From an uncultured Candidatus Saccharibacteria bacterium (GTDB lineage: Bacteria; Patescibacteriota; Saccharimonadia; Saccharimonadales; Saccharimonadaceae): a stretch of 64,000 nt of DNA. The position numbers and the translations under genes were made by a program. Below are positions 37,545 to 54,724 of the stretch, piece by piece. The first letter of the stretch is position 1. Every line of letters starts with the position of its first letter. The stretch is taken from assembly GCA_963522845.1 (NCBI GenBank), contig CAUQYZ010000003.1:5914-69913 (forward strand), in the 5' to 3' direction. The notes beneath the pieces are model-generated. The model saw only the letters and a program-made list of their open reading frames with translations, did not search any database and was not told the DNA's origin.

Positions 37545-37546
37545 AA

Positions 37547-38391: not shown

Positions 38392-38401
38392 TCGACTTGA
38401 C

Positions 38402-39978: not shown

Positions 39979-40886
39979 ACCTCCGTGTATCGATTGCGCC
40001 AGCTTACCACCACCTGTGCGGTGTCGCTCTGATTATTCGAGGTGTACTGCAATCGATTGACGCCCGGTATCAGCCCCCACCAGCTTCCGACTATCGATGA
40101 ACTCGGCGTGTTGTGTCCGTTGAGCTTGATTGACTCGTTATCCATATCTATCTCCAACGTGTCATCGGCGCCCAGGGCGATAGGCACTCGGATTGACTCA
40201 CCGGTCGTCAGGTTACTAATGACCGGACTGGTGACTGTGCCGGCTATGGTAATGGTGGGATAAACCACGTCTGAGCCGTTATTGGTCGCTACCGGCACAC
40301 TGCCACCGCTGGACCACTTCAGCCCGCTACTACCCCACTTCAGTCCTGTTTTGCCCCAGTGTAGCCCGCCCGGCTTCACTTTGGTAACTTTCACCTGATT
40401 GGCGTCGCCCGATGAGTAGTCTTGCCATAAAGGATCGGGGCAAATTAGATCGATGTCAAAGTCCATCACTGTGTTACTTTGATCGGAGTGAACCAGCTCA
40501 GTCTTGCATCTGGACACAACCGCTTGTGCTCCATAGACGTCACCGGAGGGCGCAGCGATAAAGACCTGCACATATTCCCTGATCGGCATAGCTCGAGCGA
40601 TCGCCCGGCGGTATTTGGTCAGTTCCTCGCTCGATCTCGTCATGATAAAGCCCGTAAATGAGACGATGCGGCTGCTGTATTGCTGGTCACGGGCCACTAC
40701 CAGTCCACCGTCAGCCCCGGACTTGACTGTTGAGGTGGTGCGGCGTTCCGGCTCACCAAGCCCGCTAAGTCCGCTGTAGCCGATGCGGTGAGGCTCGCTC
40801 TCCTCGTCGTCAAACTTCGAGCCCCAGAACGTCACCTCGTCGCCCGACCTGGCTCTAATCGTGATGTCGTAGTTGTTTTTTGCCAT
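39972..40886 (-). CDS. Distal tail protein (Dit-like)
   Basis: Follows tape measure; LICPDPLW, NNGSDVVYPTITI, WWGLIPGVN. Confidence 0.82.
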   Translation of the reverse strand: MAKNNYDITIRARSGDEVTFWGSKFDDEESEPHRIGYSGLSGLGEPERRTTSTVKSGADGGLVVARDQQYSSRIVSFTGFIMTRSSEELTKYRRAIARAMPIREYVQVFIAAPSGDVYGAQAVVSRCKTELVHSDQSNTVMDFDIDLICPDPLWQDYSSGDANQVKVTKVKPGGLHWGKTGLKWGSSGLKWSSGGSVPVATNNGSDVVYPTITIAGTVTSPVISNLTTGESIRVPIALGADDTLEIDMDNESIKLNGHNTPSSSIVGSWWGLIPGVNRLQYTSNNQSDTAQVVVSWRNRYTEVW

Positions 40887-43693
40887 TATGCCAGCCTCCT
40901 GATCATTCTTGCTTGCGCTCGGCTGATTAGTTCGACGTCGACATCGTTGTGCACCTCATAGTTGTTGTTGATAGTCGTCTTACCGCCCGGGCTTGCCTTA
41001 TCGCCATCTATGCGGTCTGCCAGCTTGTCTACTACTTCGTTAATCCAGCCCGTATTACTGTCGAGCGGTAGCACCGCCTCCCGTCCCGACTCGCCGATCA
41101 TAGCGATGGTTGCCGACTCGACGATACCGCCGACGGCCAGCTTGGGTATCTTAGGCAGGTTAATGCCCTTACCGCCGACTCCCGGCACCCAGTCGGGGAT
41201 CTTGATCTTGTTGATGCCGCCGATGAAGCCGTTAATCCCGTCGATGATGAAGTTAATCGGCGCTTTGACGATGTTTACTATGCCGTTTATGATGTTGCCG
41301 ATTGTCTTAGCAATACCTCGGAATATCGACCCGATGGCATTGGCGATGGTACTGAAGATACCCGTAATTACTCCGATGATACCTTGGAAGACTGCCACGA
41401 TAGTGTTGACCACTGCGCTGACCACCCCGATGATGCCGCCGATGATACCGCTCACTACATTGACGATCGTTGTGACGATTCCGGCCACCACGCCGATGAC
41501 TGCACCCACTACCCCGATGATTGCACTTATTATGCCGGTTACTACTCCGATGATTCCACTGATGATATTGACTATCACCGTGATAACTCCCATCACGATG
41601 TTGATGATTGTGGTAACGATTCCGATTATCACGCTAATAATCCCCGTTACGATGCCGACGATCACGGAGATGAGGTTAGCTACGATGTTGATGATGATTG
41701 CTACTATCCCGACCACCACTGCGATGATCTGCGCCACCACGCCGATGATATTAGCGACGATACCGCTGACTACGCCTATGATGGTCGAGACTACACTGAC
41801 GACTACGCTGATGATGGGCATGAGGACATTGCCGACCGCCATGGCGACAGCTCCTATCACACCGATCACCAGAGTGACGATTATCGACCCGACCTTAAAG
41901 ATTTGTTTGAATATCTCGCCGATTGCTCCGAATAACTTAGCGAAAGCCGGCATCAGCGGGGCAAACGCCTTGACGATGGACTGGACTATCTTGTTAAAGC
42001 TATCTCCTAGGGTCTTAAATAGCGTCTTGAATGACTCCACCATCGGCTTAAATGCCGGGAATACGTCCTTTAGTATCTTGCCGAAGCCTGAGGCGAACTC
42101 TCCGGCTGTCTTTCCTACCCCGCTAAAGCCGGAGGTGAAGCCCGAGATAAACTCCCCTACTGTCTTCACGACGCCACCGAAGCCCGAGGCAATACCCGAG
42201 GCAAACCCACCGATGGCCTTACCTACGCCGTCAACGATTGACCCCAGCGTCTTCAGCCCGGCGCTGATAGCCGGTCCGGCTACTTCTTTCAGCTTGCCCA
42301 GTCCGTCGCCTATTAGCTTACCCAGCTTGCCGAAGATGTTGAACTTCGCCTGCAAGAAGGTTAGTGCCGAGACCACCCCGATCACCCCGGCCGTTACCGG
42401 CCCGAATGACACGCCGGTGATGAGCTTGGTAACCGCTCTAAAGCCCAGAGAGAATATCTTCGTCGACTTTGCTCCCTCAATCATGGATTTGTTGAAGACT
42501 GCATTTTCGGGTGTTTTTATTCCTTGCTTACGATAAAAATCTTCCATAGCCTCAGCATTAAATGCTTCAGTGAACGACTTCCTTATCTTGCCATTGCCCG
42601 ACGTTATGCTGTCGGCAATCTTCAGTCCCTTGATTGCCGTCATGGCGGCGCCAAAGGAGGTTAGCGCCGGGATGGCGTTACTCTTGATGGTGTTGACCCA
42701 CTTCAGGATGGCGTCGTGGTTGTCCCTGATCCAGCCGGCGATTGATTTCATCACGCTCTCGAATCTCTTGCCGCTGTCTCCTATTGCCGCCCCCAGTACG
42801 TCCGTCCCGATTGCCTGGATGATGTCGCCGACGCCTCTGGTGATGGCGGTTGTGGCGTTGGCTATTGAGGTCTGTAATCCCCCGGTAGCGTTCTTGGCTT
42901 GCTCGGCGAAGCTGGGGAAGCCGCCCAGCCCTGTCTCATTCAGCTTGATCATGGCGTTGTTGAAGTCATCCATGGTTATCTTGCCGGCTTTCATCGCCTT
43001 ATATAGCCCCTGTCCGTTAGCGCTGTAGGCGGATAGCGCCCCGGTACCCAGTCCTAATGCCTTAGCTGTCTGCTGCAGCTGCGCCGGCATGGCTGTCTCC
43101 AGTGCTTTCCAGTCCTCCATCTCCGGTCTACCCTTGGCCAGTGCCTGGCGGAATTGCTCCATGGCGGCCGTTCTGACCTGCTCGACTGCCCCGCCGGCTA
43201 ATAGGGCGTTATTCAGCGCCAGTGAGGTCTTAGTTGCCATCTCCGTATTTTTTGTCACCGGCACGAAGCTCTGCGCCAGGCTGGCGATGTCATTCAGCGA
43301 GGTTGGTAGTCCTTTTACTCCTATGTCCAGCTGTTTGATCATCTTGCTCGCCTCCAGCCCGGATATGCCGAAGTTCTGCATCACTTTGGGGAAGTTATTT
43401 AGGGTGTCGACTCGCTTGACTGCTCCATCGATGTTCGAGGTAACTTTATTGAAGACCCTGGATGCTATCTGGCTGACTGTCGTTAGCCCCACCTGCCATA
43501 GCCCCGCCATCACCTTTGATTGCTTTGCGCTCCTGTCCATCGCTGATTCCGAGCTCTTGCCGATTGACTCGAAGTCTTTACTGCCGGCGGCACCGGCTAT
43601 CTTCATTGCCTGGCGGATGGAGGTTAGCTTCGGACCGACCTTAGAGTCGTCGATCTGGATTTTAATCATCATTGCTCCGATATTGGTGCTCAT
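40886..43693 (-). CDS. Tape measure protein
   Basis: AVKRVDTLNNFPKVM, 11-residue hydrophobic repeats, IPKLAVGGIV..AMIGESGREAVLPL. Confidence 0.95.
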   Translation of the reverse strand: MSTNIGAMMIKIQIDDSKVGPKLTSIRQAMKIAGAAGSKDFESIGKSSESAMDRSAKQSKVMAGLWQVGLTTVSQIASRVFNKVTSNIDGAVKRVDTLNNFPKVMQNFGISGLEASKMIKQLDIGVKGLPTSLNDIASLAQSFVPVTKNTEMATKTSLALNNALLAGGAVEQVRTAAMEQFRQALAKGRPEMEDWKALETAMPAQLQQTAKALGLGTGALSAYSANGQGLYKAMKAGKITMDDFNNAMIKLNETGLGGFPSFAEQAKNATGGLQTSIANATTAITRGVGDIIQAIGTDVLGAAIGDSGKRFESVMKSIAGWIRDNHDAILKWVNTIKSNAIPALTSFGAAMTAIKGLKIADSITSGNGKIRKSFTEAFNAEAMEDFYRKQGIKTPENAVFNKSMIEGAKSTKIFSLGFRAVTKLITGVSFGPVTAGVIGVVSALTFLQAKFNIFGKLGKLIGDGLGKLKEVAGPAISAGLKTLGSIVDGVGKAIGGFASGIASGFGGVVKTVGEFISGFTSGFSGVGKTAGEFASGFGKILKDVFPAFKPMVESFKTLFKTLGDSFNKIVQSIVKAFAPLMPAFAKLFGAIGEIFKQIFKVGSIIVTLVIGVIGAVAMAVGNVLMPIISVVVSVVSTIIGVVSGIVANIIGVVAQIIAVVVGIVAIIINIVANLISVIVGIVTGIISVIIGIVTTIINIVMGVITVIVNIISGIIGVVTGIISAIIGVVGAVIGVVAGIVTTIVNVVSGIIGGIIGVVSAVVNTIVAVFQGIIGVITGIFSTIANAIGSIFRGIAKTIGNIINGIVNIVKAPINFIIDGINGFIGGINKIKIPDWVPGVGGKGINLPKIPKLAVGGIVESATIAMIGESGREAVLPLDSNTGWINEVVDKLADRIDGDKASPGGKTTINNNYEVHNDVDVELISRAQARMIRRLA

Positions 43694-43718
43694 AGCTGAC
43701 CTCCTGCTTTTCTAAATG

Positions 43719-43727
43719 TGCTATAAT
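43719..43727 (+). promoter_or_regulatory. Extended -10 promoter of the moron
   Basis: TGcTATAAT followed by SD AAGGAG. Confidence 0.65.
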
Positions 43728-43746
43728 CCCAGAAAGGAGAAATAGT

Positions 43747-44373
43747 ATGTACTACGGTAATAAGGCTAAAGTTCATATTCCGGGTTGGTGGGAGATCCGG
43801 AAGATGTGTAAGGGGTTGAAACCGCTGGAGCCACGAGTTGACCTTGAGCTTGAGTACGACGGATCTTTCAAGGGCATTCCCAGCGTAAACGGACGTTTGC
43901 ATTTGGTTGCCAATGAGTCCGGAGTGCATATTCGCCACGGTGACGTTGACGTGAGAGAACTTACACCACAACAAGATGCTAAGTGGATTGAGTGGGTAAG
44001 AATACGGAGTAGAGGTTTTAAGCCGGCTGACCAGCCGGAAGAAAAGTTTATTGCAAACTTCAGTTGGGAAGACATTTGCGGTTTTAGCTACGATAAGTCT
44101 GTTGATGCCGGCTCCAACGTCACCACCACCCAGCGCATCACTGCCACCAGGGTAGCTGTTCTCGGCTTGTTCGCCCTGGCGGCACCCAAGACCAAGAAGC
44201 ATTACGAACATTACGACAATGGCGGCGAAGTAACAGCTACGCTTCATACTACATCCGGAGACCTCAGGTTGAGATGGGGGTGTATGTCTGCTGATATTGC
44301 CAGATCGGCTGCCAAAGAATGTCGCACCTTCGGCAAGTACGTCGCCAAGCACGCCAAAGCTACTCCATCGTAG
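43747..44373 (+). CDS. Moron: opposite-strand membrane-associated protein
   Basis: Own promoter and RBS; RITATRVAVLGLFALAAPK hydrophobic segment; inserted in the tail module. Confidence 0.8.
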   Translation: MYYGNKAKVHIPGWWEIRKMCKGLKPLEPRVDLELEYDGSFKGIPSVNGRLHLVANESGVHIRHGDVDVRELTPQQDAKWIEWVRIRSRGFKPADQPEEKFIANFSWEDICGFSYDKSVDAGSNVTTTQRITATRVAVLGLFALAAPKTKKHYEHYDNGGEVTATLHTTSGDLRLRWGCMSADIARSAAKECRTFGKYVAKHAKATPS

Positions 44374-44420
44374 GATCGGCTGTCGACTTGGCTTTATCGC
44401 TAAGATATCGTTCATATTTC

Positions 44421-44442
44421 TTACTGTATAGAAACCTCGAAA
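44421..44442 (-). promoter_or_regulatory. Late-promoter-like motif, copy 2 (two mismatches)
   Basis: TTTCGAGGTTTCTATACAGTAA downstream of the 44521-44550 terminator and upstream of the tape measure gene. Confidence 0.65.
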
Positions 44443-44520
44443 CGAGCCTGTTTTACAGTAGTGAGCATACATTTGTGTTCAGCACCATGATTTACACCCA
44501 AGTCGCTGACAACAACGACA

Positions 44521-44550
44521 AAATGGGGCGTTCTAAACAGCGCCCCATTT
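44521..44550. terminator. Bidirectional terminator
   Basis: AAATGGGGCG...CGCCCCATTT. Confidence 0.75.
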
Positions 44551-44631
44551 CTCTACTCTAAAGCTGCTTGCCGGCGGAGAGGTCCGCCCCACATCTGTAG
44601 GATTAGCCTACTATAAAGCTACTCTAAAGTT

Positions 44632-44982
44632 TTATAGCTGCGATCTCAGTCTGGCTCTAGCTTGCTCCAGCTTGCGGTTAGCCGACTTGATACCCTTCGG
44701 ATTCATCACGCAGCCGGCTGTCAGTAAGGCGTTACTAACCTCCTCGAGCTTTCTTTCTTCGATGGCTCGCATGTAAGCCCGAAAGTTGCCCAGCGGCATG
44801 TTCAGTACGTCCTCTATCGTAAACTGCGAGTAGTACATGCACAGCATGGCGATATTGCTCTCGGTCTTACTGGAGGCGTCTACCTTGCGGTGCTCGATTA
44901 TCTTGGCAATCTCTTGCTCGGCCGGGTTGCCCGTGTCAGTCGAAATACCTTCCGCTTGCCGGCTATTGCTCGATGAGCTCAC
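44632..44982 (-). CDS. Tail assembly chaperone, second part
   Basis: Position; FTIEDVLNMPL motif. Confidence 0.7.
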   Translation of the reverse strand: MSSSSNSRQAEGISTDTGNPAEQEIAKIIEHRKVDASSKTESNIAMLCMYYSQFTIEDVLNMPLGNFRAYMRAIEERKLEEVSNALLTAGCVMNPKGIKSANRKLEQARARLRSQL

Positions 44983-45328
44983 AGTCGTCTCTCATCGCCA
45001 GCTTGGCGTCAGACAAGTTAGCCAGACTCACAATGTCCTGTAGGACGCCGGCATCGACATCCGGGATGACCTCATCCAGGAACTCTCGAAATGAGATGGT
45101 CGTCCCCTTGTCCGTAGCCGGCTTGATCTTGTCGATGACGCTGTTAAACATCCTGACACCGGCCAGCTGCTCACTCGATGCGCCCGATGCTCCTGCCGTG
45201 GTTGACATGGCCAGTCCTACAGTCTGACGAGGAATGTCAAAGTAGTAGTCCTGGGTAGCACCGCTCTCGTCCGGTACGTCAATTCGTAGGATTACCCGCT
45301 TCTGTCGTCGCTCTTTGCCTAAAATCAT
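44963..45328 (-). CDS. Tail assembly chaperone
   Basis: Between major tail and tape measure genes; SD AGGAGG. Confidence 0.7.
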   Translation of the reverse strand: MILGKERRQKRVILRIDVPDESGATQDYYFDIPRQTVGLAMSTTAGASGASSEQLAGVRMFNSVIDKIKPATDKGTTISFREFLDEVIPDVDAGVLQDIVSLANLSDAKLAMRDDCELIEQ

Positions 45329-45406
45329 GTATCTATCCTCCTAAATAATTGCCATGAGACGAGCCCAAAGCCCCGCTGAGCCCGTCTTTATCATTTTGCG
45401 TGTATT

Positions 45407-45916
45407 TTACGCATTATCGACAACAATATCGCCCTGGATGTCCTTGTCGAAGGTTACCGTTAGGGTTACGTCGCCGATACCATCGTCCATGTTGCGCCCC
45501 GAGATTGAAGCGGTGGCGTTCAGCATGTAGATTGGCTTCTGGGCTGAGTTAGTCGGCATCAAGCGCAAATGTCCCAGCGGAGTAGCCTTGCCCTTGATCG
45601 GTTCGCCTACCTGGACAGCACCGTCATTGCCGGCTTTCACCTTAGCTACACCGTCGATGGCATCGCCTTTCTTGTAGACGTTGCCCGGCACGATGATACC
45701 GAGGTTCTCGGCGGTGACCTTAGTCACCTTAAACTCAGCTGTGTGCTTGTACCCTTTCTTCAGGTTGAGCGCACTGCCGTCGGTGAATGATCGAGACACG
45801 TCATCCGTATCGATCGAGGACGACAGGTCGTAGCAAGCTCCGACGGTTTTCCACACCTTAAGGTCAGTCGACCAGTCAACACTGAAGATTGTGCCAAAGT
45901 ATTCTTTAGCTTCCAT
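45407..45916 (-). CDS. Major tail protein
   Basis: Position, size, SD AAGGAGG, downstream hairpin. Confidence 0.7.
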   Translation of the reverse strand: MEAKEYFGTIFSVDWSTDLKVWKTVGACYDLSSSIDTDDVSRSFTDGSALNLKKGYKHTAEFKVTKVTAENLGIIVPGNVYKKGDAIDGVAKVKAGNDGAVQVGEPIKGKATPLGHLRLMPTNSAQKPIYMLNATASISGRNMDDGIGDVTLTVTFDKDIQGDIVVDNA

Positions 45917-46323
45917 TATTTACCTCCTTGCTCCAGCCAACCCGGAGCATACGTTAATATTTCGCATACCCACTGGATTCCCCTCTGCTCCGCCCCGACC
46001 ACATCCATATCTGATAGGGGTGTTAGAGTGAAGTTAATCACGTGTGGGTCTTTAAGTAAGCTGACCAGTGCCTGATGCACCCGGTCGTCCTTGCCGTACA
46101 GCTTCTCGGCATTGACGTCATAGCCGGCGATACGCACCTGGTAGCGGATACGACATTGAGCGATATTGCCACCCTCGGTGTTGCCGCCAAGGAGTGTCAC
46201 GCTCCAAAGGTTGTTACGCAACTTATCCGGTGTAATTCGTCCGGCGTAAACATCCTTTCGGTTTACTACCTTAGCTTTGATCAGCGCCTCGACAAGGGCG
46301 TCAGTTATCTGCTTTGCATTCAT
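45916..46323 (-). CDS. Tail terminator / completion protein
   Basis: Position in head-tail module. Confidence 0.6.
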   Translation of the reverse strand: MNAKQITDALVEALIKAKVVNRKDVYAGRITPDKLRNNLWSVTLLGGNTEGGNIAQCRIRYQVRIAGYDVNAEKLYGKDDRVHQALVSLLKDPHVINFTLTPLSDMDVVGAEQRGIQWVCEILTYAPGWLEQGGK

Positions 46324-46667
46324 TGGAAGAACCTCGCTATTCCCCTGCCGGTGACCGATTCGATTGCCTTCTCGACGAACTTAGCGCCCGTCCCCGGTGT
46401 GGTGTAACGGGTAAACGGTCGAGCACCTCGTCTTCGTCCCGCTTCCTGGACTGCTGCGTATCCAACCAGCCAGCTAACGGAGACACCGTTCATGATCGAG
46501 TCTTTACGTCGATTCTGACGCAGCTTGCCGTGCTTGCGAGGTGTAAGTGGCGTGGCAACCACCATGACCTCATTAGCCAGCTTACTGACGCCATTCAGTC
46601 CTCTGAAGTGGATGTCTCGGGCAATCTTATTTGCGTCCATGTCAACTTCTACCGAGCAACTTATCAT
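46320..46667 (-). CDS. Neck protein (HK97 gp10-like)
   Basis: TPRKHGKLR, YAAVQEAG, YTTPGTGAKFVEKA. Confidence 0.75.
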   Translation of the reverse strand: MISCSVEVDMDANKIARDIHFRGLNGVSKLANEVMVVATPLTPRKHGKLRQNRRKDSIMNGVSVSWLVGYAAVQEAGRRRGARPFTRYTTPGTGAKFVEKAIESVTGRGIARFFQ

Positions 46668-46671
46668 CAGG

Positions 46672-47028
46672 CTAGACCTCCTCCAGCTGATGTGCTGTTA
46701 CCGCCAGGACACATCGGATGAACATCGGCTTGCCGCTAGTGAGCTTATGCTCACCGACTGCTGCATCAGTCACCCGATACATCTTGCCGCCGTATCCGAC
46801 GAACTTGCCGAGCAGGTCACCATGCTGATTAACTGCATACGGGTCGCTTGCTCTGACGTACATGTAGGCATCACCCGCCATTTGGTCGTAGTATCCGACA
46901 TTGGCAATGGCGCCGCCGGGGATAAATACGACCATGACATCGGTTGCTTTGTTCTTGTCGGGTAGCGGCTCTTGCGAGTACACGGTAGTTTTCGGCTCGT
47001 AAAAGGTTACCCTGTCGCTGTACCTCAT
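46672..47028 (-). CDS. Head closure protein
   Basis: Position; YGGKMYRV. Confidence 0.6.
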   Translation of the reverse strand: MRYSDRVTFYEPKTTVYSQEPLPDKNKATDVMVVFIPGGAIANVGYYDQMAGDAYMYVRASDPYAVNQHGDLLGKFVGYGGKMYRVTDAAVGEHKLTSGKPMFIRCVLAVTAHQLEEV

Positions 47029-47645
47029 ATACAGCCCTCCACTCCACTGGGGATAATGGTGTTACTGGGCGTCCGATAGGCGCTGATAACCCCCATGTTG
47101 TCGCTCAGCACTTTGTCCAGGTCGCTCTGACTCGACTTGGCGTAAGTCACCGAATAGTCGATGATCTTCTCGGCAGTGATATCCCTGATCAAGCGACCGT
47201 TATCGTCTCGAGCGGCAAAGGACGTTCTGGCTATGGCGTCAAATAGCTGTGCCCACAGATGAATTAGTGGGAGAGGTAGTTTGGCGCCAAAGCCCCACGC
47301 AGCCTCGATCTTGATTATCTGATCGCTCACCATCGGTTTACCAAAACGCAGTGAATTAGCCGGCACTCTGAACTCATCCGACCACATCACCTCGTATCCG
47401 TCGGTCAGGAGCTTGTCGTTGACTTTGACCGACTTCAGTTCGGTGAAAGGACCGATATACAGCTGCCTTGCCCGCTCACACGAAGCAAACGTCCTTACCC
47501 CGTCACCGTCAATCGGTGCATTGAGCGCTTGTTCAAGACGTTGCTTAGCTAAAGCTACCAAAGCTTCCAGATTGTTAGTCTCAGCCTCAGAGAGAGGACG
47601 ACCTAGCTGTCGTTCAATATCTGATTTAGATAGCGTGTACACCAT
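47025..47645 (-). CDS. Head-tail connector (gp6-like)
   Basis: DIERQLGRPLS, WGFG..LP, EKIIDYSVTY. Confidence 0.72.
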   Translation of the reverse strand: MVYTLSKSDIERQLGRPLSEAETNNLEALVALAKQRLEQALNAPIDGDGVRTFASCERARQLYIGPFTELKSVKVNDKLLTDGYEVMWSDEFRVPANSLRFGKPMVSDQIIKIEAAWGFGAKLPLPLIHLWAQLFDAIARTSFAARDDNGRLIRDITAEKIIDYSVTYAKSSQSDLDKVLSDNMGVISAYRTPSNTIIPSGVEGCI

Positions 47646-47680
47646 GTCATCCTCCTTTCCCAACTAATCACCACGTGTTG

Positions 47681-49513
47681 CTACCCCTTTTTCACCGAGA
47701 TGGCAAAGGCGCTGGGTACCGGGAAGCCGACGGTCTCGTAGAAAGCAACTCGCTCAGCCAACTTGTTCTCCTGTAGCAAGTTGTGAGTAGTGGCTCCATC
47801 CTTGACCTCACCGGTATCGAAGGTCTGATCCTCGACTCCGGCTTGTCGCAGCAAGATGCCGTAGCGACTCATGTTACCGAAGATGACCTCGGCGTCAGTA
47901 CCGGACAGAGCATCCTCCACAACGAAGCGGTAGCCGTTCTTAAAGGTTCCGCTTAGCTGATCATCCATCGACTTGATGGAGTCAAGCGGGCGTCCGTCCT
48001 TGTCGACCTCGGTATCAATTGCCTCTAAGGCTTCACGGCTGAGGTAGTACTTGCCGCCACTCGCTGCCGTGCCGGCAACCTTGTAGGGCAAGTGCTTGAT
48101 GTCGGCATAGGTGATAGCGACACCGGCTCGTTGCACCTTGACCACCCCGGTGTTCTTGATGATGCCGGACTTGGTGTCGGTCAAGGCCATCTCAGCTCGC
48201 TTGCGGGCGATTGCTCGAGCAAAGCTGTCTCGCAACAGATCGTAAACGTTGACGGCTGCTTGCCGCACCAGCTTCTTAGTGACGATGGCGATGCCGGCAA
48301 ACTCACGCACGGTTAGCTTGGTGGTACCGAACTCGGGCGCAGTTACGCTCTTGCTACCGCCCTCGGCGGCAACTTCGCTTACCACCACGTCCTTGACCAA
48401 GTCAGCGACATCGAGTGAGTCGCCTTGCTCCAGGGTGATAACCCGCAGGTCGGCAGCTACGGCGGAGTAAGTGCCAAGCGAGTTGTATACATCAGCCAGA
48501 AGCTCGGCGCTCGGTACCAACGCTCCACCTGATGCCGGGGTGCTGGTCTGTACGATTGCCGCCATCTTGCGGTCACCATAGGTCGCCAGTGCCACCTTAT
48601 TGAGCTGAGCCAACTTTTCGGTGTCTCGATTGACGTAGGCGACGAACTGAGCGGCTGTCAGCTCTACCTTATCCATCTTGTCGCTAGCTTTGCTCACGTT
48701 GACGCTCTCGGGTGCCTTCTGCTCACTGGCCGCAGTCTTGGCAGCAACAATAGCTTCACCGACGCTCTTATCTGTCTTTATCATCTTGTCCTCCTTTCCG
48801 GCTGTCTTGTCAGCCTCCTTGTCTTCGTCCTGTTTTGACTCATCGGGCGTGTTGGGCGCATCCTTGTCTTCGTCGGACATCGCTGCCTTTACCTGGTCAG
48901 CGATTGCTTTGATTTCAGCCTCATCAAGCGTTAGCTTGGCGGCTTCTTTGGTTGGTTTGGGCATTTTCTTGTCCTCCTTATCTTCATTATCGTTTTTACT
49001 GGCGACGGTCAGTACTCGAGCGTCTCGGTTCGCTCCCTTCCAAACGATCGAGACTTCATCGATGTTGGCATCGTAGATGACGCCATCTTTGTAGGTGAAG
49101 TCGTCCTCGTCGGTCGAATAGGTCAGCGAGACGTTGTGGCTGATAAACCCTTCTTGAGCCAGAGTTCTAATCTCCTGTCCCCGTTCCAGGCTGGTCAGCC
49201 CGATGCGTAGGACCGGAGACTTTGTCTCATCGTCCCAAGTCGCCTGGCGTACTCCACCGATCATGTCATCGACGGTTCGACTGTGGTCTTTGAAAGCAGG
49301 GATGTCCAGCTCTTTACTGCCCAGCTCAGCGCTGGTGGTATAGCCTCCCTCGGCCAGCGGCCAGCGTAGCGAGGCGGTGTCGAATTGGTCACCATTGGCA
49401 TTTCTGAAACCATCTGTCGGGACTACGTCGATGTAACCGTTCGGATACTCGTCAGGCTTGTCGCTCGATACTTTCACCTTGGCGCTAATCGTAGCTGTAA
49501 TGGATTTCGACAT
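47681..49513 (-). CDS. Prohead protease / scaffold / HK97-fold major capsid fusion
   Basis: N-terminal DH...IG, VSL, EVSIVWKGAN.DA protease motifs; charged linker; GGALVP, IFGNMSRY, NLLQENK. Confidence 0.9.
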   Translation of the reverse strand: MSKSITATISAKVKVSSDKPDEYPNGYIDVVPTDGFRNANGDQFDTASLRWPLAEGGYTTSAELGSKELDIPAFKDHSRTVDDMIGGVRQATWDDETKSPVLRIGLTSLERGQEIRTLAQEGFISHNVSLTYSTDEDDFTYKDGVIYDANIDEVSIVWKGANRDARVLTVASKNDNEDKEDKKMPKPTKEAAKLTLDEAEIKAIADQVKAAMSDEDKDAPNTPDESKQDEDKEADKTAGKEDKMIKTDKSVGEAIVAAKTAASEQKAPESVNVSKASDKMDKVELTAAQFVAYVNRDTEKLAQLNKVALATYGDRKMAAIVQTSTPASGGALVPSAELLADVYNSLGTYSAVAADLRVITLEQGDSLDVADLVKDVVVSEVAAEGGSKSVTAPEFGTTKLTVREFAGIAIVTKKLVRQAAVNVYDLLRDSFARAIARKRAEMALTDTKSGIIKNTGVVKVQRAGVAITYADIKHLPYKVAGTAASGGKYYLSREALEAIDTEVDKDGRPLDSIKSMDDQLSGTFKNGYRFVVEDALSGTDAEVIFGNMSRYGILLRQAGVEDQTFDTGEVKDGATTHNLLQENKLAERVAFYETVGFPVPSAFAISVKKG

Positions 49514-49668
49514 ATTCCTCCATCTTTATCCTTTCTTTCGTCTAACTTCACCGCACGCTCCGGGGCTGTTCATCATCACGAGAGCCGGCTTGGTGCCGAT
49601 TAACCGCAAGTCCTCTCGTGTTGCCTGCTTGCGGCTATGTTCTTGGTAAGACAGGGTGTTACAACCCT
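49514..49668 (-). ncRNA. Structured capsid-gene leader with H-type pseudoknot potential
   Basis: P1 TAGCCGCAAG/CTTGCGGTTA; loop CACGAGAG pairs with downstream CTCTCGTG; nested hairpin TCGGC/GCCGG. Confidence 0.5.
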
Positions 49669-49673
49669 TATTT

Positions 49674-49695
49674 TCACTATATAGAAACCTCGAAA
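49674..49695 (-). promoter_or_regulatory. Late-promoter-like motif, copy 3
   Basis: Identical to 37523-37544; between terL stop and capsid leader. Confidence 0.7.
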
Positions 49696-49707
49696 GGACG
49701 TGATTTA

Positions 49708-51096
49708 TCAGATGAAGTACTCCACTTCCTGCTTTGTCTCCTGCTCGTAAATACCCGCCATAGCGTCAAGGGCATCGTCGTGCGGATTCTTCCCGCCGTC
49801 GACGTATGACAGTATCTGTGACGCCAGGTCCGGCCATCGATTGGTCCAGCCGGCAGGCATTAGCAGGTTTTGCTTGATCCAGTACGAGCTGGCTCTGATC
49901 CGAGACTGCTTATTCGCCGTGGTGGCTTGCCAGGTGACTACCGTTCTGTTATTGCCGCCGCCTTTCATGATGCGCTCGATATTCCGAGCGAAGCCACGCC
50001 CGCCATTGTTTGACTCAAATAGCGCCAAGGAGACGTTGTTGCGGGTCAGGATACTGGCACAAGCCGGCTCAGTGTATTCAGCCGGCTTTTGAGTAAACAG
50101 GGCGTCGATGATGTAGATCTTGCCATCGATGTTGACGTAGAGCAGAGCGCAGAAATAGTCGCTACCGGTATCGGCGGTATCGACGTAAGCTTTCCTGACG
50201 GCTTTCCCGTCCCCTTCCGGCAATACTTGATACTCCTGAAACTCACCGTAAAGCCTGTTCTTCACATCGATCGGTTGTTGTAGGTAGTTTGCTGAGAATA
50301 CCTCGGGGGATAACGCTTGCCGAAGCATCTCCAGCTTCTCTCGGCTCATGATCTGCGAATCAAGCATCTCTCCCTTGTCGTTTATCGCCGGGAACGATAT
50401 CGCTTCGACCTGATCACCATATCGCTCCATCACACATCCTGCCAGATCTTTGGTTGCCCAGCGCTGCATGATGAAGATGAACTTGTAGCTTTCGCCGTCC
50501 GCCCGGCTGAAGATAGTGTTGTTAAACCAGTCCCAGTGCTCCTTGAGAACCCTTGAGTTCAGGGCGTCTATGTGGTTCTTGATGATGTCGTCAAACAGGA
50601 ATAGATCGCTTCTAGAGCCGGTAACTGACGAGCCGGGTGTCACCATCCGATAAGTCGGCTCAGGTGCTCCCTCGATCTCCCAGCGAGCTTTCGTGGCGTA
50701 GCCCTGTTTGATTTTAGTCTTTGGGAATATCTGCGGGTATGGCACACCGCCTACGCCGAAGTTCTTGCCGAGAATGGTGTCTCTCACCTGAGTTGAGAAG
50801 GTCTCCGCCATCGAAGTGTTGCTGGCGGCGATGATACGGCATCTGTTGTTGCGTCCCAGCACCCACAAGCTCAAGTTCTTTACCGTAAACGACTTGAAGT
50901 GACCCGGTGGCAGAGAGATTACCATGAAGTGCTTAGGCGACCTCTCGTAGAAATCCTGCGTTCGTCTAGCCAGCTCTCTGAGTAGCCAGCTTTTATCGGT
51001 GAATAGCTTTGGATAGAGGAGCTTTTCAAACTCCCACAGATCACGTCTAGCCAGTTCCTTACGAGCCTCCAGCTTTATGACATCAGATACCGACAT
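49708..51096 (-). CDS. terL: Terminase large subunit
   Basis: SLPPGHFKS (Walker A variant), LFDDIIK, IMQRW, YVDTA, FESNNGG, HDDALDA. Confidence 0.95.
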   Translation of the reverse strand: MSVSDVIKLEARKELARRDLWEFEKLLYPKLFTDKSWLLRELARRTQDFYERSPKHFMVISLPPGHFKSFTVKNLSLWVLGRNNRCRIIAASNTSMAETFSTQVRDTILGKNFGVGGVPYPQIFPKTKIKQGYATKARWEIEGAPEPTYRMVTPGSSVTGSRSDLFLFDDIIKNHIDALNSRVLKEHWDWFNNTIFSRADGESYKFIFIMQRWATKDLAGCVMERYGDQVEAISFPAINDKGEMLDSQIMSREKLEMLRQALSPEVFSANYLQQPIDVKNRLYGEFQEYQVLPEGDGKAVRKAYVDTADTGSDYFCALLYVNIDGKIYIIDALFTQKPAEYTEPACASILTRNNVSLALFESNNGGRGFARNIERIMKGGGNNRTVVTWQATTANKQSRIRASSYWIKQNLLMPAGWTNRWPDLASQILSYVDGGKNPHDDALDAMAGIYEQETKQEVEYFI

Positions 51097-51099
51097 GCG

Positions 51100-51552
51100 T
51101 TAGCCTCCGATGAGCTTACGCAACTCATCGGTCGTTAAGTCAGACAGAGGGTTGTTGTTCGACGTGACATTCACGTGGTGCTTGATGCGGTCACGCATGG
51201 CGTTATATTCCTTGATTGCCCCCAGCTTAGTCTTGAAGTCGGCATCTTGAACGATCAGCTTTTCAAGCTGTTTATCCACGAAAACGTCGTTGAGTCCATG
51301 CGCTTCAAACAACAGATGTATGCACTTCAAAACCTTAGCATTTCTTAGCATCTTTGAAGCGTTCACTGTGGCCGTTTTATAGGCCCCCGGCACAGCCGGA
51401 TCGATATGATAAGCCTCGATATAGCTCTGCACCCCATTGCCGAAGAACTCACGATCACTGGCATACAAACGGCAAAACAGCAATTGCTTTGGCGTTAGCT
51501 TCAGTGCTTCGATCTCAGCCTTCTTGTCGTCTTTGTCCTTCTTAGCGGTCAT
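51100..51552 (-). CDS. terS: Terminase small subunit
   Basis: LTPKQLLFCRLY...GNGVQSYIEAY...ASKMLRN; LSDLTTDELRKL tail. Confidence 0.88.
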   Translation of the reverse strand: MTAKKDKDDKKAEIEALKLTPKQLLFCRLYASDREFFGNGVQSYIEAYHIDPAVPGAYKTATVNASKMLRNAKVLKCIHLLFEAHGLNDVFVDKQLEKLIVQDADFKTKLGAIKEYNAMRDRIKHHVNVTSNNNPLSDLTTDELRKLIGG

Positions 51553-51925
51553 TACCCCTCCGGTTGTCTGTATACGATGAAATACCGGCCAGGCGTGACG
51601 CTTTGATGAGTTTTAGGTAATCAAGCTTTGTGACTGTTCTTAGCCAAGCATTAAACATCTGGAAGCCGATTAGCCGACCGGAGTTGCTCTGTCCACAGTC
51701 AAATACATGGAAGGTGATGATCAGATCATTAAAAGAAACCTTGGTGACATCGCTGTAGAAGTCTATGATAAAGTCAACTGCCCTGTTGTTGTCTCTGCTG
51801 CTACGGGAAATTATCTTGCCGGGAACAACTCTTCTCTCGTACACGCTACCGACCCCCTCCCTAACCGGTCTGTAGCCCGCACCTTTCTTTGCAAGTATGT
51901 TACAATCAAAGCATAAGAACTGCAA
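51542..51925 (-). CDS. Phage hypothetical protein, first gene of the leftward operon
   Basis: ORF overlapping terS; start uncertain. Confidence 0.5.
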   Translation of the reverse strand: MQFLCFDCNILAKKGAGYRPVREGVGSVYERRVVPGKIISRSSRDNNRAVDFIIDFYSDVTKVSFNDLIITFHVFDCGQSNSGRLIGFQMFNAWLRTVTKLDYLKLIKASRLAGISSYTDNRRGNDR

Positions 51926-51963
51926 GTTCTTGGCACCTTAGCTCTGTTTCAGAGCCCATGGTC

Positions 51964-51992
51964 TTTACAAATCAAGAGGTTTTTAGTAGTAT
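51964..51992 (+). promoter_or_regulatory. Sigma70-type promoter of the sRNA
   Basis: TTTACA-17 bp-TAGTAT. Confidence 0.7.
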
Positions 51993-51998
51993 GAAACT

Positions 51999-52088
51999 AC
52001 TCGATAAACCGAATTGAGACCTCAGCGCAAGCTAAGGTCTCTCAAAGTAATTTGTTTAGACCGCTTGTGATTGACTGCGGTCTTTTTT
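51999..52088 (+). ncRNA. Candidate antisense (immunity or antitoxin) sRNA, ~90 nt
   Basis: Promoter; unpaired 5' seed; GCAA-tetraloop hairpin 52016-52041; terminator AGACCGC/GCGGTCT plus U run; 22-nt complement to 25626-25647. Confidence 0.7.
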
Positions 52089-52134
52089 AAGATCCGGTCT
52101 TACAAGATAACATAAGCTCGAGTAAGATTGTGCG

Positions 52135-52163
52135 AACGTAACGATTGTGCTCGGCACTGTCAA
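52135..52163 (-). promoter_or_regulatory. Leftward promoter toward terminase operon with GCACAATC direct repeats
   Basis: TTGACA-17 bp-TACGTT on the minus strand; GATTGTGC at 52126-52133 and 52143-52150. Confidence 0.6.
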
Positions 52164-52220
52164 GCCACCTAGACTGAGCGTCCGTAGGTCTGTTTGTTGT
52201 GGCTTGTTAAGGGAGGGTTC

Positions 52221-52316
52221 ATGAGCAGAGCGAAAACCTCGTATTCCACTACGATTTTTTCTCTAAACCTACTTAATAATCATAATCACAATGGTACTAT
52301 CATTGTGGATCATTAA
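52221..52316 (+). CDS. 31-aa ORF coupled (TAATG) to the next gene
   Basis: SD AAGGGAGG; MSRAKTSYSTTIFSLNLLNNHNHNGTIIVDH. Confidence 0.35.
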   Translation: MSRAKTSYSTTIFSLNLLNNHNHNGTIIVDH

Positions 52317-52639
52317 TGATATATAAGTATCGGCAGGAACTGAAAATGGCAAAAAGTGGAAAACCTGGTGAAAAGTCTGTGGAAAACGTTGTGGAAAGTT
52401 TTTGCGAGGATCGGGCGGCTAAAGTCGAGCGAATTGCCCAAGATTTATGCGATCGTTTAGACAATCCCGGAGCTTACGAATGGTACATGAAGTGTGCTTG
52501 GCATCTGCCACCAAGTGTACTTTACGGCAACCTTGTAATCGCTAAGGGAGGACGAAATCCTCAGAAGTTCTTCACGTATCTATGCAAGCAGTCGCTACAG
52601 CATTCTAAAAGCTACCTTAAGCATCATTCTGAACGCTAA
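52316..52639 (+). CDS. Small phage protein, possibly replication-initiator-related
   Basis: VENVVES linker encoded by DnaA-box-like repeats; C-terminal RNPQKFFTYL helical motif. Confidence 0.6.
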   Translation: MIYKYRQELKMAKSGKPGEKSVENVVESFCEDRAAKVERIAQDLCDRLDNPGAYEWYMKCAWHLPPSVLYGNLVIAKGGRNPQKFFTYLCKQSLQHSKSYLKHHSER

Positions 52640-52668
52640 CGCTTCCGACTCTGCTCCTAGTATCAATC

Positions 52669-53604
52669 ATGAGAGTGGGAGAAAAGAGCAGAGTCCGGAT
52701 GACGATTAGAGAAGCCATGGAGAGTTATTTGTTTTATCAGGCTAAGGTGAGGATGCGATCACCCTCGACTATCAAGGGGCGACGTATCTACCTGACGAGA
52801 TTTGGAAATTATTTCGGTATGGATGCTGATATCGGCAGTCTGTCCAACGTTGATATCGATCGATACCATACGGACATGCGGGCATCGACTTCGAGAAGGG
52901 GCAAGCCGATGTCAATCGGCTCGGTCAACACCAGCATCAGATCGGTCAAAGCTCTACTGAACCACTGCATCAACTATCACGGTGAGCCCATCTTGGCAAA
53001 AACCTTCATGATTTACGAGCTTAAACAGCCGGAGACTCATCCGGAGATAATTCTCTTCTCTGACGTCAGAGAGGTCGTTGCCGTGTGCAAAGACGAGCAG
53101 GATCGGTTGATGATAGCTCTGCTGTTCGAGGCCGGCTTGCGTATAGCTGAGCTCTGCGCCGTTAAGCTGGAGGACTTCAGAGACACCACCCTGGACGTAG
53201 TCGGCAAAGGTGCTAAGCATCGCATCACCTTTGTCTCAAACGAGCTCTACACGGCTATTACAGAGCGCTGTAGGAGCCTAGGCATCGAGCGTGGTTACAT
53301 CTTTCGTCCGCTCATGCACGGTGGCGACCACTACACCAACATCGACACGGTCAGAGCCAGGATAAAGAGAGTTTTCCTGCGTGTTATGGGTATCGACATG
53401 CACCCACACCAGCTGCGGCACGCCTTTGCCATCAACCTGCTGGAGAATGGCGCCAATATCAGATCCATACAGAAACTACTGGGGCACGCAAAAATAGAGA
53501 CGACCATGCGCTACCTGGGCATCTCCGACAAGTATCTCGAGCAGGATTACACCACCCATTTTGGTGGTAGCGTGCTACCCGGAACGGTGACTGCGCCTAA
53601 ATGA
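52669..53604 (+). CDS. int: Tyrosine recombinase / integrase (XerC/D-like)
   Basis: GLRIAEL, GKGAKHR, HPHQLRHAFA, LLGH, TTMRY; adjacent to attR. Confidence 0.95.
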   Translation: MRVGEKSRVRMTIREAMESYLFYQAKVRMRSPSTIKGRRIYLTRFGNYFGMDADIGSLSNVDIDRYHTDMRASTSRRGKPMSIGSVNTSIRSVKALLNHCINYHGEPILAKTFMIYELKQPETHPEIILFSDVREVVAVCKDEQDRLMIALLFEAGLRIAELCAVKLEDFRDTTLDVVGKGAKHRITFVSNELYTAITERCRSLGIERGYIFRPLMHGGDHYTNIDTVRARIKRVFLRVMGIDMHPHQLRHAFAINLLENGANIRSIQKLLGHAKIETTMRYLGISDKYLEQDYTTHFGGSVLPGTVTAPK

Positions 53605-53633
53605 TTGACAAAACACAGGCACTTTGCTAGCAT
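53605..53633 (+). promoter_or_regulatory. Strong phage promoter reading into attR/tRNA
   Basis: TTGACA-17 bp-TAGCAT with TGn extension; boxA-like ACTTAACAA at 53651-53659. Confidence 0.75.
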
Positions 53634-53742
53634 AGTGGCATCAAACTTGTACTTAACAACCTTACTGAATGATCGTTCTTGCCATCCAAGAATCGGTCAT
53701 CTGCGCTGGGCTTGGGATTTTCCTTTTCTCGCCTGCCTTACG

Positions 53743-53845
53743 ATGGTGTATAATCTTATTAGCTTTACTGGGATGTCGCCAAGTGGTAAGGCATCAGGTT
53801 TTGGTCCTGACATTCGGGGGTTCGAATCCCTCCATCCCAACCAAA
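53743..53845 (+). repeat. attR (103-bp direct repeat)
   Basis: Matches 25439-25541 with one mismatch. Confidence 0.95.
53769..53843 (+). tRNA. tRNA-Gln(UUG), right copy, identical and full length
   Basis: Same 75-nt sequence as 25465-25539. Confidence 0.97.
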
Positions 53846-53887: not shown

Positions 53888-54724
53888 ATGGCAGATGACT
53901 TAGTCTTTGTACTATTTCGATTGACGGTCGATAGAATGCGGGGAGCGGTAAGTGCCAGCTCAGGATATGTCATTAAGCGAAGCCAAGTGGCTAGCTATCT
54001 AGACCAAATTACCGACGAGCTAAAGTCCCGCCAGATCAGCAAAGAGTTGACACTGAAGAAGCATAGCGACGACGTCTATGCCTACGAATTCAAGAAGCCG
54101 ACCAAGACTATCTTCGTCCGCATCATGCCGACCGCTGACATATCTTATCGCATCGGCACGATTAATGAGAAAGGACAGCTGGTTGATGCGGCGAAGACGG
54201 ATAGTTACCCTGCTGCCGTCAAGTGGATACAGACACACGAGGCGTCCGATCAGTCTCGTCATTATCAGCTGGTGGCTAGCCTGCCTAATGTCGAGACCCC
54301 GGTCATAGTTAGTGATGTGCTGGAGCAGATTAAGTCGGGTGAGAATAATATCTTCGTGGCGAAAGCTAGCCATCTCGGCAAAGTCAATCGGCTCAATGAC
54401 CCGAATGGTAAAAAGAAGGCTAACAAGAGCTGGCTGGGTAAAGTCTTAGAGACGAACAAGGCGGGACGGATCATCTTCTACATCGGGCTGATTCCGTTTA
54501 TCCTGTGCGGCATAGACGCCTTGATGTCGATGGTCTTTAGTGATGGCGGGCGTCACCGAGTCAATGTGATTCTCTATATCGTCTGGGCGGTGACTAAGCC
54601 TGTCGTGACTGATTATGGTCAGTGGCTATTGCCTGTCTCTATCGTGCTGGTGCTGGGTGGCTTTAGCTCTTGCCTGAATAGCTACCTGTCTGACAAGAAG
54701 AAGACGAAGCAAGCGGACCGCTAG
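53888..54724 (+). CDS. Hypothetical membrane protein (C-terminal TMs)
   Basis: 278-aa ORF; SD AAGGAG. Confidence 0.75.
   Translation: MADDLVFVLFRLTVDRMRGAVSASSGYVIKRSQVASYLDQITDELKSRQISKELTLKKHSDDVYAYEFKKPTKTIFVRIMPTADISYRIGTINEKGQLVDAAKTDSYPAAVKWIQTHEASDQSRHYQLVASLPNVETPVIVSDVLEQIKSGENNIFVAKASHLGKVNRLNDPNGKKKANKSWLGKVLETNKAGRIIFYIGLIPFILCGIDALMSMVFSDGGRHRVNVILYIVWAVTKPVVTDYGQWLLPVSIVLVLGGFSSCLNSYLSDKKKTKQADR

Follow-up and report, generated by a model that had tools for sequence, protein, structure and literature searches.

Complementary elements on either side of a Saccharibacteria prophage attachment site: a candidate RNA-RNA switch at the integrase leader

How does a phage of a very small bacterium remain a prophage when none of its genes can be recognised as a repressor of the CI/Cro type? 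To our knowledge, almost nothing is known about the maintenance of lysogeny in phages of Saccharibacteria or of the Candidate Phyla Radiation (CPR). The question is raised by a prophage of about 28 kb in an uncultured Candidatus Saccharibacteria bacterium, contained in a stretch of 64,000 nucleotides (nt; hereafter the window) that belongs to a genome of 850,822 bases, 98% complete. Near the right end of the prophage, a short predicted transcription unit (hereafter the unit) precedes the integrase gene, and its 5' end is complementary to a hairpin (site 1) at the start of the early leader, near the left end. A first reading of the bare sequence (hereafter the original prediction) took the unit for a separately transcribed antisense small RNA (sRNA) that replaces a protein repressor. 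Comparison with relatives shows that the two elements are under selection to remain complementary, and folding predicts that their pairing abolishes a terminator in front of the integrase operon. The reading that we develop here, and to which we give an even chance, is that the pair forms an RNA-RNA switch for lysogeny, in which attenuation of the integrase is combined with silencing of the early leader or immunity.

The two elements consist of the following features, placed by a promoter scan and by minimum free energy (MFE) folding; G132 is a genome of the same genus, to which we return below.

25623-25652, + strand: site 1 hairpin, with an 8-pair stem (25624-25631/25645-25652) and a 13-nt loop (25632-25644)
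51964-51992, + strand: promoter P1, TTTACA-17-TAGTAT, 9/12 matches, the sole promoter-like site in the scan of 51500-53000
51999-52088, + strand: predicted unit RNA of about 90 nt (MFE fold)
51999-52015, + strand: single-stranded 5' tail, mostly unpaired in the MFE fold and accessible
52016-52041, + strand: hairpin H1, with a GCAA loop (MFE fold)
52043-52054, + strand: small second hairpin (MFE fold)
52058-52088, + strand: terminator, AGACCGC, 12-nt loop, GCGGTCT, then T6 (MFE fold)
52089-52220, + strand: structured leader from the terminator to the gene, with further hairpins conserved in shape with respect to G132

Bases 52000-52021 of the unit are the exact reverse complement of 25626-25647 in site 1 (22 nt), and over 25 nt (25623-25647 with 52000-52024) the two depart from complementarity by a single mismatch, G25625 opposite T52022, which is a G:U wobble if both + strands are RNA and an A opposite a C on the other strand. 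Searched in the whole genome with up to three mismatches, the 22-mer occurs once forward and once reverse, and the same sequence read backwards, used as control, does not occur. The complementarity is not a chance match. The two elements are 26 kb apart in the prophage and, as given by the att repeats, about 1.9 kb apart on the excised circle, and the loop of site 1 is predicted to be accessible. On this anatomy the original prediction was right: the promoter scan and the MFE fold recovered the promoter, the GCAA hairpin and the intrinsic terminator where it had placed them (the terminator was missed by the terminator scan, whose loop limit is 8, the loop here being of 12 nt); the 22-nt complement on the + strand, 26 kb away, is exact as it had claimed, extends further with one mismatch, and is unique in the genome; folding returned the 13-nt loop and stem of a hairpin at the start of the early leader as the target; and its estimate of 1.9 kb on the circle agrees with the att repeats, while a 4562-nt contig spanning the junction displays the order. 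Its expectation that seed and target covary was also borne out, in close and in distant relatives.

One close relative is UViG_159405, a viral contig of 30 kb, which shares about 92-95% identity with the window phage wherever the two were compared. Its left site has a T for the window's C, and its unit has the A that pairs with this T. Single-ended contigs carry a C (L041) or a T (L042 and G403) in the left site and a C-type (L048) or T-type (L049) unit, and show that both alleles circulate. G132 can be aligned with the window phage over only 49 nt at the left site and over 234 nt, at 70% identity, at the unit. Both of its elements are without the base that varies between the window and UViG_159405, they are exact complements over 24 nt, and they are the sole two copies in the genome. 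The elements thus match in all cases with both ends in one record (3/3), as C/C (window), T/T (UViG_159405) and a 1-nt deletion (G132), all at the same position. The hairpins that carry them covary too: between the window and G132, the stem of site 1 has G-C to A-U and G:U to G-C changes, and the pairing of H1 is kept by a G-C to A-U change. Conservation of hairpins was judged by folding each sequence, as the MAFFT alignment displaced the G132 hairpin arm by one column. A degenerate seed pattern searched in viral contigs added only two unrelated coding matches (L058, L059).

Are there such pairs beyond the close relatives? A profile of the 107-residue (107-aa) protein encoded after the unit found homologues in 12 of 401 genomes of the family, including the window's own genome and G132. 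Seven of the 10 new genomes have units of unrelated sequence that share the same plan, i.e., a promoter-like site (with the -35 hexamer TTGACT in five of the seven), a tail of 25-30 nt, a hairpin, a terminator and a leader of about 120 nt. The other three were left out of the partner test, G125 and G304 because the upstream region is cut by contig ends (194 and 92 nt) and G028 because no unit-like leader was seen by eye. Each distant unit was compared by BLAST with its own genome, which gave these partners:

G072: 21-nt match at 95%, query 7-27, opposite strand, 25 kb away on the same contig
G274: 24-nt match at 92%, query 7-30, opposite strand on the same contig; two units, two inverted partners
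G372: 27-nt match at 96%, query 17-43, opposite strand, 7 kb away on the same contig
G334: 22-nt match at 95%, query 8-29, on another contig
G025: 30-nt match at 97%, query 2-31, on another contig

No other match in these searches had an expect value (E) better than 0.3. When the window type and G132 are counted in, a partner was found in 7 of the 9 unit-bearing lineages, and it always matches the 5' tail of the unit. In every lineage with a partner the latter sits in a hairpin beginning 2-20 nt 3' of an intrinsic terminator (equivalents of T0 are present in G132, G072, G274, G334, G025, and G372). The concerted changes in close relatives, and the pairs of distant ones, which are wholly different in sequence and yet match, show that selection keeps the 5' end of the unit complementary to the left hairpin.

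In the complete genome of G274 (L067, L075, L087-L090; C1:491-548 kb), one of the two partners lies 2.1 kb from the second of the two units, an arrangement that indicates a tandem or nested pair of related elements.

A number of traits of these sequences indicate that pairing would take place between + strand RNAs. First, the complementarity begins 7-8 nt past the -10 hexamer in 6/7 lineages (7 nt in the window; a few bases earlier in G025), and a promoter-like site is present at the position equivalent to P1 in 9/9 lineages (8/12 matches in G372, 9-11/12 in the other eight). Second, the single mismatch is the G:U described above. Third, the hairpins covary. Fourth, all the terminators carry their T-run on the + strand. 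The same traits bear on the hypothesis that both sequences are DNA operators, bound by a phage protein such as the 107-aa protein, which would repress P1 and act on the early region. The right site does overlap the predicted +1 of P1, the 107-aa protein is without known function and always beside the recombinase, and no other phage repressor is known. However, the match starts exactly at the predicted +1, its lone mismatch is a G:U only on the + strand, the left site has no promoter, and the right copy is without the second half of the dyad seen at left (GGTCTC...GAGtag in the window, GAtatt in G132). Moreover, a 1-nt deletion in the middle of both sites and sequences that differ completely between lineages would demand repeated changes of specificity, yet the core of the protein is conserved. 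We regard operators as a very unlikely explanation.

If the elements pair as RNA, what is the unit for? The genes that follow it are these:

52221-52316, + strand: short upstream open reading frame (ORF) of 31 aa (MSRAKTSY...), overlapping the 107-aa gene by TAATG
52316-52639, + strand: 107-aa gene, no family match
52669-53604, + strand: tyrosine integrase (int), PF00589 at 7e-27, phrog_1

In 12/12 genomes the unit or leader is followed by a gene of the 107-aa family and this gene directly by a recombinase, which is a tyrosine recombinase in 11 and a large serine recombinase in G028. Since these genes follow in all twelve, and since the leader continues for 130 nt past the terminator, the unit appears to be the first part of an attenuator leader of the operon of the 107-aa gene and integrase, and not just a free-standing sRNA gene. 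The short + strand transcription unit of the original prediction therefore stands as anatomy, and the attenuator role is what it had overlooked. Between the leader and the integrase, the short ORF and the 107-aa gene are fused in G132 as one ORF of 99 aa, which suggests translational coupling or a split gene.

Within the leader, a 24-nt block, CCTAGACTGAGCGTCCGTAGGTCT, at 52168-52191 lies in a hairpin and is unchanged in G132 at 23 of 24 positions; it occurs once in the window, and a scan of metagenomes with it gave two contigs. The outer stem around it has changed in sequence in G132 with its pairing retained. The block is possibly a protein-binding site.

The 107-aa protein keeps a conserved core across lineages, and its relatives form 12 unnamed clusters. 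Its AlphaFold2 model is a four-helix bundle with a mean predicted local distance difference test score (pLDDT) of 77, for which Foldseek gave nothing at E <=0.001; a wide structure search returned a best Z of 6.5, to unrelated helical proteins, and of 4.7-4.8 to DnaD-like domains, which is below the noise of helical bundles. Its neighbours in the Atlas are only unnamed CPR and phage clusters. Against viral contigs, the single query gave no match and the alignment query only UViG_159405, whereas against genome contigs the alignment gave two true loci and two weak 21-residue matches in Actinomycetota. The constant place beside the recombinase suggests that the protein is a recombination or regulatory partner.

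How could pairing at the 5' end affect the operon? In every paired lineage the complementary stretch is longer than the free tail and reaches into the first hairpin, on its 5' arm, and in G274 and G372, where the single hairpin is the terminator, it enters the 5' arm of the terminator itself. When the first 24-26 nt are blocked, the MFE structure of the window, G132 and UViG_159405 units shifts from H1 and the terminator to an antiterminator helix that joins the loop and 3' arm of H1 to the 5' arm of the terminator. In the window this alternative is:

52026-52032/52063-52069 and 52036-52040/52058-52062, + strand: alternative antiterminator helix, the MFE structure with the 5' 26 nt blocked or paired with site 1

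When a unit is co-folded with its cognate site, an intermolecular duplex of 25 bp forms along with the antiterminator, the energy being -22 to -23 kcal/mol with respect to the monomers, and in a 3 by 3 cross-test the cognate pair is the best in each row and column. The terminator is gone from the MFE structure of the heterodimer in 7/8 pairs, including those of G334, G072, G274, and G372. The antiterminator segment exceeds dinucleotide shuffles in stability, with z = -3.2 in the window (4/500 shuffles reach it) and z = -2.35 in G132 (12/500). Pairing is thus predicted by these models to abolish the terminator of the P1 leader.

These results weigh on the view closest to the original prediction, i.e., that the RNA of about 90 nt is a free-standing antisense RNA acting in trans, solely to silence the early leader for immunity, with the 107-aa gene and int controlled separately. 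The unit has the standard anatomy of an sRNA with an accessible 5' tail, its target loop is accessible and lies at the entry of the early operon, with a terminator-like hairpin after it, and no HTH repressor was found in the family scans described below. Three alleles at one loop position, in phages about 95% identical, also resemble diversifying immunity specificities. Yet the unit is always joined to the operon of the 107-aa gene and recombinase, and the complementarity passes the free tail into a hairpin arm whose release yields a conserved antiterminator. The terminator is the sole hairpin in G274 and G372, and the complementarity includes its 5' arm. Finally, no switch is predicted in the early leader and no promoter was found for the target. 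For these reasons we hold the free-standing sRNA to be rather unlikely.

The preferred reading, an attenuator opened by site 1, leads to the question of where transcripts that carry site 1 come from. Between int and the early genes, in the order of the circular phage, lie the following features:

53605-53633, + strand: promoter P2, TTGACA-17-TAGCAT with TG before the -10, 10/12 matches, beginning at the base after the int stop and facing the phage attachment site (attP)
53651-53659, + strand: second boxA-like motif, ACTTAACAA, about 10 nt into the predicted P2 transcript
53725-53845, + strand: attR direct repeat, with the second tRNA-Gln(UUG) at 53769-53843
25421-25541, + strand: attL direct repeat, 93% identical to 53725-53845 over 121 nt and holding a complete tRNA-Gln(UUG) at 25465-25539
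25555-25583, + strand: terminator T behind the tRNA-Gln, a 10-pair stem and then a T-run
25590-25620, + strand: terminator T0, stem GCAGACGA/TCGCCTGC and then T6, ending 2-3 nt before the site 1 hairpin

The duplicated tRNA-Gln(UUG) genes, within 121-nt direct repeats, bracket the prophage. A promoter-like site (9-12/12 matches) directly follows the recombinase gene in 9/10 lineages examined, with 12/12 in G274 and none in G025. The junction of the circular form is represented twice. The 4562-nt contig (L044/L051) has, in order, the 107-aa gene, int, tRNA-Gln, two terminators, the site and early genes, and the order int, (P2), att, T, T0, site is found both there and in the tandem copy of G274. 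What lies ahead of P2 in the circular phage is the terminators, then the site and the early genes; in the prophage P2 reads into the host flank, where, through attR and the second tRNA-Gln, it may drive the host gene at 53888-54724.

In G274, G350, and G125 (L067, L071, L065), P2 is followed by a conserved stretch of about 200 nt, e.g., GGTGGACAATCGTAGTTATGG, which ends at the att repeat and is probably part of a host RNA gene used for integration.

The order of the junction suits another possibility, regulation in cis in the manner of lambda sib. A transcript of the circular phage that ran through T0 would hold both the 5' tail and site 1, the 25-bp stem would be cut by RNase III and the int mRNA destabilised or processed, and integration would remove site 1. 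It is consistent with this that site 1 lies across attP from int, right behind a terminator, as sib does relative to tI, that the host has an RNase III gene, and that both the G274 tandem copies and the circular-junction contig display int, P2, att, T, T0 and the site in this order. But few transcripts would carry both elements, because the P1 attenuator and two more terminators intervene, those started at P2 are without the 5' tail, and the conserved antiterminator alternative is left unexplained. Retroregulation in cis is, in our opinion, quite improbable.

Beyond site 1, the early leader has these features:

25669-25695, + strand: T1, a weak terminator-like hairpin after site 1, whose G132 counterpart is stronger (6-bp stem, TATTTTTTGTTT tail)
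25778-25798, + strand: boxA-like motif, ACTTAACAATTCGG itself being at 25778-25791
25845-25968, + strand: long leader hairpin and ribosome-binding site before the first early gene
25969-26112, + strand: first early gene, hydrophobic, 47 aa, with a 41% identical homologue in the same position in G132

The original prediction had read 25784-25798 as a second partial pairing site overlapping a boxA-like motif. The sequence is present, but as a pairing site it finds no support: it does not covary with the seed and stays C where the seed and site 1 carry T. It keeps its C in the T-seed phages, recurs as CCTTAACAATTCGG in G372, whose seed is unrelated, and resembles CTTTACAATTTAG in the leader of the host 16S (rrn) genes, 221 nt before the 27F site (a similarity only, with one rrn leader). 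We therefore read it, by comparison with the boxA sequence of E. coli, as a probable boxA-like antitermination signal and not as a pairing site. The early leader and the predicted P2 transcript both bear ACTTAACAA(TT). Outside the window, the leader of the gene for ribosomal protein L10 (G000 C10:25481) carries CCTTAACAATTAGG, the same boxA-like motif. Further on, the window and G132 have the same long hairpin by MFE folding with different sequences in the paired arms, and this conservation indicates an RNA leader that starts well upstream. A TTGACC at 25918 was considered as a promoter element and rejected, as it lies within this conserved RNA stem. The small first gene stands about 320-340 nt beyond the left site in the window, G132, G072, and G274.

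A diverged left-type site, GAGGCCTCAACCATATTGTCGAG, with both upstream terminators, lies beside a tRNA-Gln(CTG) in G275 (L019, C3:108840-108941). Neither unit, partner nor early genes were found for it in that genome. It looks like a prophage scar or remnant and was excluded from the counts of pairs.

Is a repressor protein needed besides? The original prediction recognised no HTH gene of the CI/Cro type in the prophage, and the family scans agree: none was found with Pfam (E up to 1, 28 ORFs; 0.01, 29 ORFs), NCBIfam (15 ORFs) or PHROGs (26 and 19 ORFs) in the phage, nor with Pfam among 13 ORFs of G132.

Several points weigh against the switch that we propose. 1) Most small ORFs of the phage match no family, so a divergent repressor may be among them, and the 107-aa protein could itself be a DNA-binding regulator. 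2) The pairs found within the same record among close relatives are three only, and the units of G342 and G350 (2/9 lineages) gave no partner by BLAST against their own genomes. 3) No promoter-like site of the sigma-70 type (at least 8/12 matches) was found in 25400-25980 or in the leader of G072, such sites being elsewhere scattered and not conserved in position; as site 1 stands behind two terminators without a promoter directly upstream, its transcription would depend on read-through or on P2 in the circular form. 4) Blocking site 1 produced no predicted structural change downstream in the early leader, which leaves the silencing of early genes without structural support, and in G334 the genes downstream of the partner are on the opposite strand. 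5) The G025 heterodimer retains the terminator in its MFE structure, and MFE folding is blind to kinetics. 6) We infer from the anatomy of the sequence that both RNAs are produced, and likewise in which direction and to what outcome the regulation works and what P2 and RNase III do in it; control could run the opposite way to the one proposed, or be narrower.

With these points in mind, the switch might work as follows. P1 would fire constitutively and its transcripts mostly stop at the attenuator, giving the RNA of about 90 nt and leaving the integrase operon off by default. The loop of the left hairpin would display the complement of this RNA, behind the terminators on the int/attP side and at the entry to the boxA-carrying early leader, and it would be borne by transcripts that read past the terminators to the early genes, most of them started at P2 when the DNA is circular. 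With its 5' arm occupied by the pairing, H1 would open, its 3' arm would form the antiterminator with the 5' arm of the terminator, and transcription would read through into the 107-aa gene and int. The 25-bp duplex might also mark the early leader for silencing, plausibly via RNase III. As P2 would reach the site and the early genes on the circular phage only, integration would disconnect the early genes from it. In the lysogen, the abundant terminated RNA would serve as a sequence-specific immunity factor against transcripts of incoming phages of the same type, a role that would explain the lineage-specific pairs and the three alleles at one loop position. A bolder form of this scheme, which we consider unlikely as it stands, is that a family of Saccharibacteria phages decides between lysis and lysogeny by RNA and DNA topology only: promoterless early genes would be driven by P2 and boxA, integration would disconnect them, the site 1 RNA would sense circularity and turn on the integrase, and the terminated P1 RNA would titrate the site 1 RNA, resulting in bistability and superinfection immunity with no repressor protein.

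The setting of the pair in the prophage bears on two further ideas. The early genes run rightwards from 25969 and encode the 47-aa protein, RecT, a YqaJ-type exonuclease and a DNA methyltransferase. The late block (32956-51925, minus strand) encodes the endolysin, holin, portal-like and tail proteins, tape measure, major head protein and both terminase subunits, and the right end, again rightward, has the unit, the short ORF, the 107-aa gene and the tyrosine integrase. In G132 (L036/L037, C5:35375-52053) all genes run one way, the late block of the window being inverted with respect to it, with breakpoints near 32950 and 51930, neither of which is the left repeat. The unit of G132 has + strand genes on both flanks, and the terminase is 18 kb off on the same strand. 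Hence the antisense overlap with the terminase leader, to which the original prediction had given a function, is a peculiarity of the window's gene order and is not conserved. The same arrangement in G132 rejects the alternative that the 22-mer is a nut-like sense element shared by two divergent leaders. The gene orders also speak to the notion that the inverted repeats do not act as RNA at all and are either sites of DNA inversion or what is left of a rearrangement. They do flank 26 kb, the late block has been inverted, and in G132 a second tyrosine recombinase gene, split into ORFs of 134 and 157 aa, stands directly 5' of the unit. But the breakpoints of the late block miss the left repeat, the repeats stand in the same relation to int and the early genes whichever gene order is considered, and the promoter, hairpins and terminators conserved around them belong to one strand only. 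We take this notion to be extremely unlikely.

Other observations concern the rest of the prophage. A perfect 62-nt inverted repeat (32441-32502 and 33302-33363) flanks a segment of 800 bp. Its right arm lies within a 311-aa tail-like gene (32956-33891, minus strand) and its left arm leads in frame into the ORF 32510-32947, so that inversion of the segment would be expected to exchange the C-terminal third of the tail-like protein for an unrelated one and so to switch host range, as the Mu G and P1 C segments do; no invertase was identified. A 32-nt repeat, TTTCGAGGTTTCTATATAGTGAGGAG..ATG, occurs three times on the minus strand (37513-37544, 44411-44442, 49664-49695; chance expectation 0), two copies finishing at or near start codons of late genes (37526, 44472) and the third lying in the interval from terL to the major head gene. 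A late promoter, or else a signal for processing and translation, is a possible role for this repeat. Upstream of terS, an unannotated ORF (51542-51925, minus strand) has 3, 2, and 24 differences at first, second and third positions of its codons, respectively, a substitution pattern like that of terS, which marks it as a real gene. Indels in relatives suggest that its true start is a GTG near 51845, behind the ribosome-binding site GGGAGGGGG. Scans with Pfam and PHROGs found no family match for it. Comparison of 51400-53725 with a phage collection by blastn gave no match, and a direct repeat, TGTAGCCC..CCTTTCTTT (25878 and 51871), was dropped at E = 0.12.

How does the proposed switch compare with systems already described? 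The P4 CI RNA, the c4 RNAs of P1 and P7 and the CA RNA of N15 confer antisense-RNA immunity; they are cut from the leader that they regulate and have two target sites in it, and this type of C4/CI antisense RNA is named C4 and IsrK in Rfam. As in these phages, a short structured phage RNA would expose a sequence that pairs with a leader site on the same strand, downstream on the circular map. A few bases would set the specificity, so that variants would be heteroimmune, and the RNA would take over the role of a repressor partly or wholly. In contrast with them, the RNA considered here has its own promoter and terminator and one covarying target rather than two, it is separated from this target by the attachment site and the integrase operon, and it is also predicted to be an attenuator of the integrase. 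No C4/CI match was found with the covariance models of Rfam 15; the Rfam scan proposed with the original prediction gave just tRNAs and sub-threshold noise, both for the window at gathering score and, at E up to 1, for the loci of unit and leader in the window and in G132.

The predicted mechanism is closer to the rep leaders of plasmids pT181 and pIP501, which fold into a terminator or an antiterminator according to whether a complementary RNA binds their 5' part (PMC5415839). The likeness lies in the mutually exclusive folds selected by 5' pairing, which here is a computational result (7/8 pairs by folding). The difference is that the plasmid RNAs come from the opposite strand of the same DNA and their binding terminates transcription, whereas here the partner is on the same strand, 1.9 kb away on the circle or 26 kb away in the prophage, and termination is predicted to be prevented. 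In this last respect the unit resembles T-box leaders, where an RNA acting in trans pairs with the leader and favours the antiterminator over the terminator; but the effector would be a phage transcript that pairs over about 25 nt, not a tRNA with codon-like and acceptor contacts, and no T-box sequence was found in the Rfam scans.

In lambda, sib is an RNase III hairpin complete in itself, and its effect is exerted only in cis, at the 3' end of the int mRNA. The position of sib relative to tI is reproduced here, since the element lies beyond attP, right behind the terminator of int, integration separates it from int, and read-through is needed to reach it; this position was seen in all partner-bearing lineages. 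Unlike sib, site 1 has its complement at the start of the leader of the int operon, and the two covary. The motif in the early leader and the P2 transcript, for its part, resembles CTTTACAATTTAG in the host 16S leader and invites comparison with boxA/nut and rrn-type processive antitermination, but no N-like or Q-like protein was recognised, and the adjacent hairpin would be an antisense target, not a conserved boxB.

We found no description in the literature of such a system, in searches on Saccharibacteria prophages and lysogeny and on antisense RNAs with integrase attenuators in prophages. If the switch is real, 1) an antisense partner turns an integrase attenuator on, not off; 2) the attachment site splits regulator and target, so that the circuit differs between the circular and the integrated phage; and 3) the "address" specific to each lineage is a natural source of orthogonal pairs of RNA switches. 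The conserved architecture offers a handle to search for further prophages in very small genomes, and the prediction can be tested without culturing the host, by short synthetic RNAs and single-round transcription. Antisense immunity RNAs and antisense-controlled attenuators are both already known. What would be new is their arrangement: a regulator and a target on the same strand that are split by attP, a pairing predicted to relieve the attenuator of the integrase, and pairs of addresses that are specific to each lineage among the phages of an ultra-small bacterium.

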